Assembly (NCBI GenBank): GCA_021735655.1
Contig: JAIPGM010000001.1
Location: 1-64,000, forward strand
Origin: Candidatus Omnitrophota bacterium
Lineage (GTDB): Bacteria > Omnitrophota > Gorgyraeia > Duberdicusellales > 4484-171
DNA: 64,000 nt
Direction: 5' to 3'
The notes under the pieces are model-generated. The model saw only the letters and a program-made list of their open reading frames with translations, ran no database searches and was not told the origin of the DNA. Below, piece by piece: positions 29,422-32,661 of the stretch (position 1 is its first letter; every line of letters begins with the position of its first letter). The position numbers were made by a program, and so were the translations under genes.

Positions 29422-31590
29422 ATGGATGCTCGCACGATTACTTTTTTTAGTCCCAAGGGAGGCGTAGGTAAAACCCTGTTTTCTTTGAATTTAGCAGTAA
29501 GTTTAATGGCCAAAGGTAAACGGGTGCTACTCTTAGATTTAGATCTCGGAGCGCCTCAGATGACTGCAAAGCTCCTTGGGGTTGATGCTAAATATTCCTT
29601 GTTTAGCCTAGTTGGCCACATTAAGGAGTTTCAAGAGAAAAAAAGAAATATTAAAAACTATGTAACTCCTTATAAGAATAACTTATCATTTTTACCTTCG
29701 ATTACTAAGCTTGCTCAACGTGCCAAAATAACTGCACCGTTAATAAAAGATTTCATCGGAACGATAAAGGATGATTTTGACTATATAGTCATCGACGCCG
29801 GAAATAACTTAAGTGATACCTTAATTGCTGCTTTTGATTCTTCGAGTCTTATTCTTTTGGTGCTTACCCCGGATATTTTATCGGTCTATCAGACCGAGTG
29901 GATACTTGATACTTTACAAGCAATCGGTTTTCCTCTGCAGATGATTAAGGTTGTACTTAATCGGGCTGAAAGCAAAGGTTCGATTAGCTGGCAAGAGATA
30001 AAAATGCTTTTGCCGGCTGAGATAATCTCTTTGGCTCCTTCGGAAGGAAGATTGGTTGGTATGGCCGTTAATCGAGGAATTCCGGTTGTAGTTGATGCGC
30101 CAAATTCTAAGCTCAGCATGGCCATACATAAGTTAGCCGAAGAATTGATTGAAAATAAAGATATTTATATTGAACATAAACATCTTACTGAATTGCGGGT
30201 GTCAAAAGAAGAGTTAGTTGAAGATGATGTCGCTTTTTTACAGAAAATTGGGCTTACCGAAGGTTCGGAAAAAGTTTACCTACAGGAAGAAGAGGATGAG
30301 GTAATTCGTTTTAAAAAGAAGGTTCATTCTAAGTTGCTTCAGGAGTTAGATTTAAAGCGTCTTCCGGTTGAGACATTTTCCTATAGTCAAAAAAAGATGA
30401 GGGAACTAAGAGATAGAGCCCAAAGGGTTATTTCTAATATTATTAGTCAGGAAGCTGGTGGATTCATCTCTTCTTTAGAGATTCGTAAAAAAGTAACTAA
30501 AGAAATTCTTGATGAAGCCTTAGCCTTAGGTCCTTTAGAAGATTTACTTAAAGATCCGACCACGACTGAAGTTATGGTTAATAATAAAGATCAGGTTTAT
30601 ATTGAGCGTGGAGGAAAATTATACTTAACCAGCAAGAAGTTTACCGGAAATGAACAGGTTCGGATAGTCATTGAGCGAATTTTAGCTCCCCTAGGTAGAA
30701 GAATTGATGAGTCGGTTCCTTATGTTGATGCTAGGCTTAACGATGGTTCACGTGTTAACGCGATTATTTCGCCGCTTTCTTTAACCGGGCCAACTCTAAC
30801 TATTAGAAAATTCGCCCGTCAACGTTATCATATGACCGATTTAGTTGAGAAATTTGGTTCATTGACTCCGGAGATGGCAATGTTTTTAGATGCCGCGGTA
30901 AAGGCCCGTAAAAATATATTAGTTTCCGGAGGAACTGGTTCCGGAAAAACCACCTTTTTAAATATTCTTTCTGAATATATCCCTGAGACCGAACGTATTG
31001 TTACGCTTGAAGATTCAGCTGAGCTTAAACTCAATCAGACTCACTGGGTTCGTCTTGAGTCACGGCCACCGAATATTGAAGGAAAGGGGCAGATCAACAT
31101 TCGAGATTTATTTCGTAACACCTTACGCATGCGTCCGGATAGAATCATCGTCGGTGAGGTAAGAGGCGATGAGGTTATTGATATGCTTCAGGCTATGAAT
31201 ACTGGTCATGATGGCAGTATGTCAACTATCCACGCAAATACCACCCATGACGTTTTAATTCGTCTTGATAGCATGATTTTAATGAGTGCGATTGAACTGC
31301 CGATTAGGGCGATTCGCGAGATGATTTCATCGGCGGTTAACTTAATAGTTCAGACTGCTAGAATGAGTGATGGTTCAAGAAGAGTAACTGCAGTTACTGA
31401 AATTGTTGGCATGCTTGATGACATGCATGTTAATTTACAGGATATTTTCGTTTATCGCCAGACCGGAGTCGATAAAAAGCAAGTAGTTCAAGGCTACTTT
31501 ACCTCTTTAGGCTACATCCCTACATTTTACGATGAAATTAGAGCTCGTGGTATACAGTTGCCGCGTGAGATATTTATCTCCAAGGAATAA
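29422..31590 (+). CDS. tadZ-tadA: fused TadZ/CpaE-like ParA/MinD ATPase + TadA/CpaF secretion ATPase
   Basis: 722 aa. N-terminal deviant Walker A FFSPKGGVGKT (MinD/ParA class). C-terminal ~390 aa is a VirB11/CpaF-type ATPase (VSGGTGSGKTTFLN, Asp and His boxes). Confidence 0.8.
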   Translation: MDARTITFFSPKGGVGKTLFSLNLAVSLMAKGKRVLLLDLDLGAPQMTAKLLGVDAKYSLFSLVGHIKEFQEKKRNIKNYVTPYKNNLSFLPSITKLAQRAKITAPLIKDFIGTIKDDFDYIVIDAGNNLSDTLIAAFDSSSLILLVLTPDILSVYQTEWILDTLQAIGFPLQMIKVVLNRAESKGSISWQEIKMLLPAEIISLAPSEGRLVGMAVNRGIPVVVDAPNSKLSMAIHKLAEELIENKDIYIEHKHLTELRVSKEELVEDDVAFLQKIGLTEGSEKVYLQEEEDEVIRFKKKVHSKLLQELDLKRLPVETFSYSQKKMRELRDRAQRVISNIISQEAGGFISSLEIRKKVTKEILDEALALGPLEDLLKDPTTTEVMVNNKDQVYIERGGKLYLTSKKFTGNEQVRIVIERILAPLGRRIDESVPYVDARLNDGSRVNAIISPLSLTGPTLTIRKFARQRYHMTDLVEKFGSLTPEMAMFLDAAVKARKNILVSGGTGSGKTTFLNILSEYIPETERIVTLEDSAELKLNQTHWVRLESRPPNIEGKGQINIRDLFRNTLRMRPDRIIVGEVRGDEVIDMLQAMNTGHDGSMSTIHANTTHDVLIRLDSMILMSAIELPIRAIREMISSAVNLIVQTARMSDGSRRVTAVTEIVGMLDDMHVNLQDIFVYRQTGVDKKQVVQGYFTSLGYIPTFYDEIRARGIQLPREIFISKE

Positions 31591-31593
31591 GTT

Positions 31594-32661
31594 ATGGCTG
31601 AAGGCGCAGATAAACTACGTAAACTTTTAGCTGATCCGACAATCACCGAAATAATGGTTAATGGCCCCAAGGCTACTTGGCTTGAAATCGGTGGAACTAA
31701 ATCCAAAATAGAAGTAACTTTTAGTGAAGAGGACATGAAGGATATTATTGATGTTTTTTTTACTCGAGTCGGTAAAACCATATCTTATTATAATCCTTAT
31801 GGCGATGTTTGTACCGAAGATGGCTCACGTATAAATATTATTCAATACCCTTTATCGCGTTGCGGTACAACCTTAACCATTCGTAAATTTGACCGTCAGC
31901 TTCATTCGCTTGACGATTTGATTGCTAACGGTACCATGAATCAAAAAATGGGTGACTTTTTAATTGCCTGTATTAAGGGTAAGGTTAATGTCCTTTTTTC
32001 GGGAGCGACTGGTTCCGGCAAAACTACTACTATGGAAATGTTATCGCACCATATTCCGGAGCAGGAACGTTTAGTAACCATTGAGGATACAGCTGAACTT
32101 ATTCTTCATCAGGAAAATCTTGTACCAATGGAGACCCGCACCCCTGACCAGGACGGAAAGGGTGAGGTAACTTTAAAGGATTTAATTAGAAATGCCTTAC
32201 GTATGCGCCCGGATAGAATCATCGTTGGTGAGGTAAGAGGCCCTGAGGCCTTAGATATGATTCAGGCTATGAGTACTGGTCACCGGGGAACCCTAGCGGT
32301 AATTCACGCAAATAGCCCCCAAGAGGTTACTAACCGTATGGAAACTTTGATTCTTTCTTCAGGAATAAAGCTTCCGATTGAAGAAATCCGCCGAATGATT
32401 GGAAATACCCTACATGTAATTGTTCAGCAGGAGCGCTACCCTGACGGAATACGCCGAATAAGCCATATTTCTGAGCTTAGAGGGCTTGAACGCCGGGAAG
32501 TAGCTATCCAGGACCTATTTATCTTTAGACGCGAAGGAAGGACCGCAGAGGGCAAAATCAAGGGTAAATTTCGTACAGTTATGCGTAACTATCCTCGTTT
32601 CTTTCCTGAATTTAACCGCCTCGGTCTTTTGGATGAGAAGGCCTTTTCAGAATACGAGTAG
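31594..32661 (+). CDS. tadA: second TadA/CpaF-type secretion ATPase (compact)
   Basis: 355 aa. Walker A FSGATGSGKTT. Paralogous to the C-terminal half of the upstream fusion. Confidence 0.8.
   Translation: MAEGADKLRKLLADPTITEIMVNGPKATWLEIGGTKSKIEVTFSEEDMKDIIDVFFTRVGKTISYYNPYGDVCTEDGSRINIIQYPLSRCGTTLTIRKFDRQLHSLDDLIANGTMNQKMGDFLIACIKGKVNVLFSGATGSGKTTTMEMLSHHIPEQERLVTIEDTAELILHQENLVPMETRTPDQDGKGEVTLKDLIRNALRMRPDRIIVGEVRGPEALDMIQAMSTGHRGTLAVIHANSPQEVTNRMETLILSSGIKLPIEEIRRMIGNTLHVIVQQERYPDGIRRISHISELRGLERREVAIQDLFIFRREGRTAEGKIKGKFRTVMRNYPRFFPEFNRLGLLDEKAFSEYE

Follow-up and report, generated by a model that had tools for sequence, protein, structure and literature searches.

We describe a pair of neighboring genes in a Candidatus Omnitrophota bacterium (GenBank assembly GCA_021735655.1, contig JAIPGM010000001.1), in which the localization ATPase TadZ and the motor ATPase TadA of the Tad pilus are joined in a single protein of 722 amino acids (aa), TadZA, followed directly by a compact TadA paralogue of 355 aa, TadA2. 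Both lie within a stretch of 64,000 nucleotides (nt; positions 1 to 64,000 of the contig, hereafter the window), and we identify them by sequence as the cytoplasmic ATPases of a Tad (type IVc) pilus machine. We consider it likely that TadZA is the principal Tad motor, with a positioning or regulatory ATPase tethered to each of its subunits, and that TadA2 is a specialized, probably active paralogue. The prevailing view of Tad pili is of a single bifunctional ATPase as motor, with TadZ as a separate protein that positions it. A fused design has been described in tad locus 1 of Bdellovibrio bacteriovorus, where an "atypical TadZA hybrid" is essential, binds the polar hub RomR through its TadZ region plus linker, and moves dynamically between the poles (bioRxiv 10.64898/2026.07.08.737194). 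In the literature that we searched, with PMC3272108 and PMC3305808 outside its scope, we found no earlier description of such a fusion in Omnitrophota.

The initial annotation of the window had proposed a TadZ and a TadA in one polypeptide with a stand-alone TadA behind it, and both open reading frames (ORFs) are present as it described (Table 1). The domain annotation that it recommended, with profiles for T2SSE and for ParA/MinD, bears the proposal out: in the 722-aa ORF, Pfam placed AAA_31/CbiA/ParA at aa 4-185 (E values of 7e-20 to 3e-13) and T2SSE at aa 369-647 (E 2e-61), and in TadA2 it placed T2SSE at aa 7-279 (E 4e-46). The two motifs on which the proposal had been based were also found, S-P-K12-G-G-V-G-K17-T near the N terminus and G-G-T-G-S-G-K509-T-T in the C-terminal half. 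The C-terminal 469 aa of TadZA aligned with residues 77-491 of Caulobacter CpaF (9e24; E 1.6e-113), spanning the N-terminal domains NTD1 and NTD2 and the C-terminal domain (CTD). Scored against nine CpaF reference residues (K287, E312, E357, R359, H374, H382, R217, R223, and R347), the TadA part of TadZA has the Walker A, Asp box, Walker B, and His box of the TadA/CpaF family along with the NTD2 arginines and the trans-acting Arg, and R438, R444, K509, E534, R569, E579, R581, H596, and H604 are invariant in 119 orthologues. It likewise has the TadA NTD1, the Loop 8 motif (GRRxDES) in the form GRRIDES, which includes D429, and the central-loop motif (E-G-x-G) in the form NIEGKG, both motifs being invariant, the Loop 8 motif in the same 119 proteins. 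The Walker B motif and catalytic Glu, which the initial annotation had singled out for checking, are conserved in both TadA copies (119 TadZA and 116 TadA2 orthologues).

An AlphaFold2 model of the TadZA monomer, built from 54 orthologues (mean predicted local distance difference test [pLDDT] 76, predicted template modeling score [pTM] 0.51), has two folded modules: an N-domain at aa 1-250 with a pLDDT of 80-94, then a low-confidence linker, helices, and the NTD2/CTD core. A Foldseek search with the whole model returned CpaF first, followed for the N-domain by the ParA-family structure 3ea0 (template modeling [TM] score 0.92) and MinD (TM 0.8-0.9). The linker of ~40 aa carries the conserved motifs (I/L)YIxHKxLxxLR, F(W/L)xKxGLxE, and EEED (within aa 248-292, window 30163-30297), which are candidates for docking by analogy with Bdellovibrio TadZA, where the TadZ region and linker bind RomR. 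Compared with Caulobacter crescentus CpaF (8rjf, 8rkd, and 9e24), the catalytic and platform-contact residues are all kept in TadZA. In contrast, Caulobacter has its CpaE as a separate protein with a receiver-like N-domain, a free disordered NTD0 on CpaF that tunes retraction, and one bifunctional motor in a locus that has no second TadA.

The fusion is real and conserved, and is no assembly artifact. Our ortholog set comprises 119 full-length TadZA proteins of 700 to 745 aa, drawn from assemblies of independent origin (NCBI, JGI, ENA, and Logan). More than 120 clusters at 57 to 100% identity came up in a protein search, nearly all of ~720 aa, and every named one was assigned to Omnitrophica/Omnitrophota. 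The window protein itself is 100% identical to a protein from a Candidatus Omnitrophica metagenome-assembled genome (MAG), listed at NCBI as "Flp pilus assembly complex ATPase component TadA." We found the single ORF in eight more Omnitrophota loci (L001, L002, L003, L037, L083, L084, L086, and L089), one of which (L002) belongs to a complete genome of 1.82 Mb. About 55 further clusters (at 50% identity) from other lineages match at 39 to 47% identity across both the N-domain (aa ~5-250) and TadA (aa ~360-720), and among these a cluster from a Bacteriovoracia MAG is 42% identical to TadZA over its full length, in a locus with the order RcpC-secretin-TadZA-TadB that also has Flp and a Peptidase_A24 gene. 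That the single ORF arose by an assembly or sequencing error (a lost stop codon or frameshift between tadZ and tadA), the case that the initial annotation had itself named as refuting, draws only on the fact that most bacteria keep the two genes separate and has practically no chance of being correct: it is ruled out by the single ORF kept in more than 119 independent full-length orthologues, complete genome included, and is further opposed by the conserved linker motifs and by the absence of both the receiver domain and the CpaF NTD0, which a lost stop leaves unexplained.

In most bacteria TadZ/CpaE and TadA/CpaF are separate proteins, as the initial annotation had held for canonical tad loci. 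In 64 loci from other phyla, spanning Acidobacteriota, Chloroflexota, Rhodobacterales, Nitrosomonas and others, the homologue of the N-domain is the ATPase half (aa ~140-400) of a separate CpaE of 400 to 450 aa, the gene of which stops 3 to 100 nt before a separate cpaF (450 to 490 aa). Given this adjacency of separate genes, the sequences lead us to conclude that the Omnitrophota protein is a tadZ-tadA gene fusion that has lost the receiver-like domain of TadZ (~140 aa) and the free NTD0 of TadA. Apparent full-length matches (residues 3-718) outside Omnitrophota in a scan of genome contigs were rejected as fusions, and ORF analysis resolved them as adjacent separate cpaE and cpaF genes. In a midpoint-rooted neighbor-joining (NJ) tree with neither outgroup nor support values, the fusions of different phyla are not monophyletic, and therefore either one or several fusion events are possible.

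We assign the N-domain to TadZ on the basis of synteny and of its homology to the CpaE ATPase domain: it is a ParA/MinD-fold ATPase that stands at the tadZ position ahead of TadA. Against the ATPase domains of the 64 stand-alone CpaE proteins encoded directly upstream of cpaF, the N-domain scored 35 to 116 bits (phmmer); the N-terminal 300 aa also match MinD, FlhG, and FleN structures in the PDB (best E 1e-16), but solved MinD reaches at most 64 bits, and the higher CpaE scores support a TadZ origin at the sequence level. Scores against NCBIfam lie below the cutoffs of both MinD families (minD_arch, 110 versus 201.75 bits; minD_bact, 92 versus 212.9 bits). Compared with canonical TadZ/CpaE (A. 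actinomycetemcomitans; E. rectale, 3FKQ), TadZA shares a ParA/MinD-fold ATPase encoded immediately before tadA, but is without the atypical receiver domain, has the P-loop Lys and a second Asp in the A' motif, and has the motor covalently joined. In ~115 of the 119 Omnitrophota TadZA proteins the Walker A motif is KGGVGKT and the A' motif DLDL; stand-alone CpaE has KGGCGT(S/T), with no P-loop Lys, and DLNLQ, and the fusions from other phyla are mixed in both motifs. In the window protein, K12 is the signature Lys, K17 the P-loop Lys, and D125 the Walker B residue. In MinD/ParA ATPases, hydrolysis is served by the P-loop Lys and the Asp residues, whereas the signature Lys serves the formation of ATP-sandwich dimers. 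From these residues we infer that the TadZ domain of Omnitrophota is a competent ATP switch, unlike the weak ATPase described for TadZ.

TadA2 consists of NTD2 and CTD only, starting at the hinge before NTD2 with NTD0 and NTD1 missing, and shares 45% identity with the TadA portion of TadZA. We recovered at least 116 full-length orthologues (56 to 94% identity), and in the 116 that we analyzed K143, E168, R203, E213, R215, H230, H238, and R79 are invariant, residues that correspond in CpaF to the Walker A Lys, the Asp-box Glu, the Walker B Glu and Arg, the His-box His, R223, and R347. What TadA2 lacks, in addition to NTD1, are R217 and the Loop 8 residue D208, all three of which are universally conserved in main TadAs. 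The equivalent of R217, which in CpaF touches the beta-phosphate in the closed state (PMC11300603), is Cys (C73) in 105 of 116 TadA2 proteins and Arg in 119 of 119 TadZA. The equivalent of D208 is Ser (S64) in 103 of 116, and where canonical TadA, every TadZA, and TadA with an N-terminal forkhead-associated (FHA) domain invariably have the Loop 8 motif GRR(I/V)DES, TadA2 instead has GK-x-(I/V)-S; mutation of D208 in CpaF abolishes function, and this residue has been modelled at the CpaG/H interface. The central-loop residue N329 is replaced by Asp, and the hinge-1 residue G149 is lost. TadA2 scored 254 bits against NCBIfam TIGR03819 (cutoff 373) and 68 bits against pilT_fam (cutoff 319), and PDB matches to PilT were far weaker than to CpaF (E ~1e-11 versus 1e-80). 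The NJ tree sets TadA2 outside the main TadAs altogether, as a separate clade on a long branch, and we therefore regard it as an old paralogue, not a recent duplicate.

Only 3 nt separate the two genes (TAA GTT ATG), and an AAGGA resembling a ribosome-binding site (RBS) lies 7 nt upstream of the TadA2 ATG, which together suggest that translation of TadZA and TadA2 may be coupled. Stop-codon readthrough from TadZA into TadA2 was also considered and rejected: the two share a frame in the window but lie in different frames in L003 and L086. TadA2 directly follows TadZA in the window, L003, L037, L086/87, L089, and L091, and ~28 TadZA clusters (at least 63% identity) agree with a TadA2 cluster in the size of their longest contig. 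No TadA2 stands next to TadZA in L001, L083, and L084, and the complete genome L002 has a truncated copy; some lineages can thus do without it. A metagenome scan with the TadA2 alignment gave, among the matches listed, mostly generic TadAs; the informative loci were L089-L091. Taken together, SurA-RcpC-RcpA-TadZA is the invariant core of these loci, and TadA2 is a clade-restricted accessory that is sometimes lost. TadA2-type genes also occur as orphans, near another secretin (L085) and among housekeeping genes (L088). In L085 (7977-11105) the TadA2-type ATPase gene is neighbored, on the opposite strand, by a second secretin gene, with no TadZA near, an arrangement resembling the rcpA2-tadA2 module of Bdellovibrio.

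We propose the following mechanism. An ancestral tadZ/cpaE would have fused with the tadA/cpaF directly downstream into one ORF, whereby the receiver-like N-domain of TadZ would have been lost and the disordered NTD0 of TadA replaced by the 40-aa linker, with NTD1, NTD2, and CTD kept. TadZA may hexamerize via its TadA part and drive the TadB/TadC platform like CpaF, each subunit presumably bearing a tethered MinD-like ATPase that in Omnitrophota has all hydrolysis motifs; given these motifs, the MinD-like domains of neighboring subunits probably form ATP-dependent sandwich dimers. Through the TadZ domain and linker motifs, the motor could be docked to a partner with a positional or regulatory role, and a single polypeptide would then couple motor placement to activity, as has been suggested for Bdellovibrio TadZA. 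TadA2 is ancient and under purifying selection and, judging from its motifs, probably active. Because NTD0 and NTD1 are both missing, a nucleotide-contacting Arg is replaced by Cys, and Loop 8, which faces the platform, is remodelled, the job of TadA2 most likely differs from that of TadZA, either as an accessory or alternative motor or as a ring subunit that modulates direction or rate, and it is most likely neither a redundant copy nor a dead regulator. We infer hexamer formation, dimerization of the TadZ domains, docking, and any role of TadA2 from architecture, conservation, synteny, and individual residues.

Several points weigh against TadZA as a TadZ-bearing principal motor accompanied by an active TadA2. 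The TadZA model is only moderate (pLDDT 76, pTM 0.51) and monomeric, the NJ tree is crude, and the absences and truncation of TadA2 listed above are matched in Bdellovibrio, where tadA2 is likewise dispensable. The likeness to the TadZA of Bdellovibrio HD100 was judged by its published description, and the functions given here for the Omnitrophota proteins are predicted from sequence. The N-domain departs from TadZ in several respects: the N-terminal receiver-like domain is missing, with the P-loop starting at aa 10 where CpaE has ~140 extra residues; the Walker A motif is the canonical KGGVGKT and not the atypical TadZ form (K/RGGxGxS/T, no P-loop Lys); the best database matches are MinD in both PDB and NCBIfam; and the crystallized TadZ 3FKQ was recovered neither in the PDB search nor in the Foldseek top 50. 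The label TadZ that the initial annotation had used is thus upheld by synteny and homology to the CpaE ATPase domain, but the missing receiver-like domain and the canonical Walker A do not fit it. The missing receiver-like domain, the canonical Walker A, and the best matches to MinD, together with the MinD-like DxD motif, would be expected had a MinD/FlhG-type ATPase been recruited independently onto TadA. We think such a recruitment improbable, in that the CpaE scores (up to 116 bits) exceed those of any solved MinD, the N-domain occupies the exact tadZ position, and the TadZA fusions of other phyla have intermediate or atypical Walker A motifs.

Where TadZA is taken as the principal motor, what TadA2 does can be explained in more than one way, and two explanations are about equally tenable, though both are unlikely. 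According to the first, already raised in the initial annotation as separate extension and retraction motors, TadA2 would be a second, dedicated motor (e.g., for PilT-like retraction), assembling into a homohexamer of its own that exchanges with TadZA on TadB/TadC. Its minimal NTD2 plus CTD architecture, like that of PilT relative to PilB, its invariant catalytic core, the family-wide conserved remodelling of Loop 8 as well as of the central loop, and its putative translational coupling to the main motor all fit this explanation, as do short TadAs with similar loop changes that accompany FHA-TadA in Kil-like loci of Myxococcota. However, Caulobacter CpaF alone both extends and retracts (PMC6920026, PMC11300603), several Omnitrophota have a truncated TadA2 or none, TadA2 is no member of the PilT family, and loss of the Loop 8 D208 might equally prevent any engagement with the platform. 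The type IVa pair PilB/PilT, in which a long assembly ATPase is joined by a short (~350 aa) NTD plus CTD paralogue, is a conceptual two-motor analogue; TadA2 differs in belonging to the CpaF family.

According to the second explanation, TadA2 is a dispensable accessory for another secretin or filament, or is being lost, and has no role in the main Tad pilus. The loci with TadA2 truncated or absent beside TadZA, the TadA2-type gene adjoining a second secretin in L085, and the dispensable and differently expressed rcpA2-tadA2 of Bdellovibrio point in this direction. Its strong conservation, including the invariant catalytic residues and the family-specific Cys, and the tight operon coupling kept over a large clade argue against it.

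Somewhat less probable again, in our view, is that TadZA and TadA2 co-assemble in a mixed hexamer (e.g., 3+3), with TadA2 providing subunits free of the bulky N-terminal modules. The 3-nt gap and the RBS within the upstream gene would favor co-translation at a fixed stoichiometry, R223 and the intersubunit R347 finger are invariant in both proteins, and the asymmetric unit of CpaF is a trimer (PMC11300603). TadA-TadA(-TadA) concatemers from Anaerolineae, Riflebacteria, and Fimbriimonadaceae indicate that nonidentical modules can share a ring, but their domains are of the main-TadA and not the TadA2 type, and TadA2-type orphans away from any TadZA (L085, L088) and TadZA proteins without TadA2 do not suit a mixed ring. 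The initial annotation had also suggested a regulatory pseudo-ATPase, to which the Cys at the R217 position and the loss of G149 would lend themselves, but this is unsupported and very unlikely given that the Walker A Lys, both catalytic Glu residues, the Walker B Arg, the His-box His, and two of the three arginines (R223 and R347) are invariant in all 116 TadA2 orthologues.

These concatemers are tandem TadA chains of two to four motor modules (P0241, 1,156 aa; P0242, 1,605 aa; P0243-P0245; P0248; P0258; and P0270), of which a hexamer would need two to three chains; P0241 was full length in two sequence variants (P0241 and P0404) and on at least three contigs. A second short TadA (330 to 430 aa) occurs in the Kil-like loci L033, L038, L041, L061, and L067 from Myxococcota MAGs, where the order is RcpC, secretin, FHA-TadA, TadB, TadC, a tetratricopeptide repeat (TPR) protein, and short TadA (e.g., L061, 7721-15184). 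Like TadA2, these short TadAs have lost GRRxDES and carry N329D, but they keep Arg at R217 and form a separate clade. KilF (FHA-TadA) of Myxococcus and Kil-like systems resemble TadZA in serving a predation-associated Tad-like machine with a motor that carries an N-terminal regulatory module, with the difference that this module is FHA and not TadZ. The Kil system of M. xanthus was described with a single ATPase (PMC8460266). Together, concatemers and Kil-like short TadAs suggest that arrangements with several TadAs are commoner than the textbook picture of a single motor. We offer as speculation that short TadAs (TadA2 and perhaps those of Myxococcota Kil-like loci) could be an unrecognized class of second motor subunit; with similar reserve, this class may have lost NTD0 and NTD1 and had its platform-facing loops rebuilt in Tad machines of the predation or attachment type; and, no less tentatively, it might either drive retraction, as an independent PilT-like invention, or become part of the TadZA ring and there determine direction or rate. 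If true, some Tad systems would not be single-motor machines.

As in the Bdellovibrio hybrid, the TadZ region, flexible linker, and TadA of Omnitrophota are encoded in one ORF of the main locus. Bdellovibrio further possesses tadA2 and tadA3 paralogues, with a dispensable rcpA2-tadA2 module, and its tad loci are without tadV, PilD processing Flp instead (bioRxiv 10.64898/2026.07.08.737194). The arrangement is thus less unusual than the initial annotation had implied, since the fusion, extra tadA paralogues, and tadV-free tad loci have all been published for Bdellovibrio. Both systems share the position of the TadZA gene after rcpC and the secretin gene, extra tadA paralogues, and tad loci with no tadV. 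They differ in that the TadZ region of Bdellovibrio has an atypical K/RGGxGxS/T Walker A where Omnitrophota have the canonical KGGVGKT, that its tadA2 and tadA3 lie in other loci whereas the Omnitrophota TadA2 is directly downstream and apparently coupled, and that a RomR-type partner is known there and none in Omnitrophota. Omnitrophota Tad loci have been tied to predation or parasitism with no mention of the fusion, and their TadB and TadC group with those of Bdellovibrionales (Seymour et al., PMC10066038), a grouping that fits a shared heritage with Bdellovibrio.

Our finding is an annotation-level refinement, as the TadZA kind of system was already known from Bdellovibrio. It indicates that the fused design is widespread, as almost all Omnitrophota tad loci have it and so do dozens of other protein clusters, and this spread adds weight to the view that host-attacking bacteria physically couple positioning to motor activity. 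The canonical KGGVGKT P-loop of the TadZ domain and the old, conserved, clade-restricted, and sometimes lost TadA2, which combines an intact catalytic core with Cys for a nucleotide-contacting Arg and a diverged Loop 8, look specific to Omnitrophota. They provide two natural experiments: (i) a TadZ domain in which every motif for ATP hydrolysis is retained and (ii) a conserved short TadA altered at a nucleotide-contacting Arg and a platform-binding loop.

The window has a G+C content of ~39% and carries nearly all of its genes on the plus strand. Both ATPase genes sit in a tad locus (RcpC, secretin, ~12 Flp-like pilins, TadG-like, TadB, and TadC) with the gene order SurA-like, RcpC/CpaB, secretin, TadZA, TadA2, five unmatched genes, pilin array, TadG-like, TadB, and TadC (Table 1).

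Table 1 Features of the tad locus and its two ATPase genes, with positions in the 64,000-nt window
Feature	Position	Strand	Residues or evidence
SurA-like peptidyl-prolyl isomerase	25857..26756	+	Pfam Rotamase_2, SurA_N_3; heads module SurA-RcpC-RcpA-TadZA
RcpC/CpaB alignment protein	26764..27576	+	Pfam RcpC E 3e-21, SAF domain
RcpA secretin with C-terminal TonB_C	27639..29279	+	Pfam Secretin E 2e-45, T2SS-T3SS_pil_N
TadZA, complete ORF	29422..31590	+	722 aa
TadZA aa 1-250, ParA/MinD-fold TadZ ATPase domain	29422..30171	+	K12, K17, D39/D41, D125
TadZA aa 251-292, flexible acidic linker	30172..30297	+	pLDDT <50 at aa 253-293
TadZA aa 293-367, TadA NTD1 three-helix domain	30298..30522	+	Model helices 293-309, 316-344, 352-367
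TadZA aa 368-722 and stop, TadA NTD2 and RecA-like CTD	30523..31590	+	CpaF 9e24 match, Pfam T2SSE
TadA2, NTD2 and CTD only	31594..32661	+	355 aa; CpaF residues 149-492, E 1e-80
Flp-like prepilin array, ~11 genes	37307..40785	+	K/R-A-Q-S-x-L/I-E-Y motif; weak Class_IIIsignal matches
TadG-like protein	40822..42324	+	Pfam Tad (TadE/G-like) E 3e-6
Further Flp-like prepilin gene	42359-42514	+	Same K/R-A-Q-S-x-L/I-E-Y motif
TadB platform protein	43165-44013	+	Pfam T2SSF E 1e-20
TadC platform protein	44029-44895	+	Pfam T2SSF E 2e-15

The position of the SurA-like gene is kept in L001, L002, L083, L084, and L086. A scan for promoters and terminators gave counts at chance level, the sole site noted being a candidate promoter ahead of the SurA-like gene (TTGACA-17-TACAAT, 25805-25833), which matches the consensus at 11 of 12 positions and is a consensus match only. 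In the secretin, TonB_C lies at aa 467-543 (Pfam, E 3e-13); this secretin-TonB_C fusion is kept in all Omnitrophota tad loci inspected (the window, L001, L002, L083, L084, and L086), and TonB_C is absent from the secretins of Bacteriovoracia (L169) and Myxococcales (L061). The ~12 Flp-like prepilin genes form an unusually large pilin repertoire. Across all non-antisense ORFs of 100 aa or more in the window, Pfam gave no match to Peptidase_A24 (TadV/PilD), in agreement with the initial annotation, which had seen no TadV there.

Eight sizeable genes without a Pfam match lie within the locus (32853-37303) and beyond it (45324-52800), and a PADLOC scan of the unmatched locus genes gave no match. 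Among the unmatched proteins are one of 337 aa with repeated PSF-x-K-L units and one of 479 aa with an apparent 478-aa counterpart in L086, as judged by size and position only. A CNNM/CBS (CorC-like) gene pair and a PIN_5 gene lie just upstream of the tad module (21035-23220 and, on the minus strand, 25148-25729; L002, L086), and a CNNM/CBS pair is also found near the TadZA locus of the Bacteriovoracia MAG (L169), which may be shared synteny or coincidence. A giant ORF of more than 3,546 aa (53363-64000) starts ~560 nt beyond the last locus gene and runs past the end of the window, with no Pfam match in its first 1,546 aa; giant ORFs flanked by pilus or secretion genes have already been published for Omnitrophota (bioRxiv 10.64898/2026.06.07.730766).

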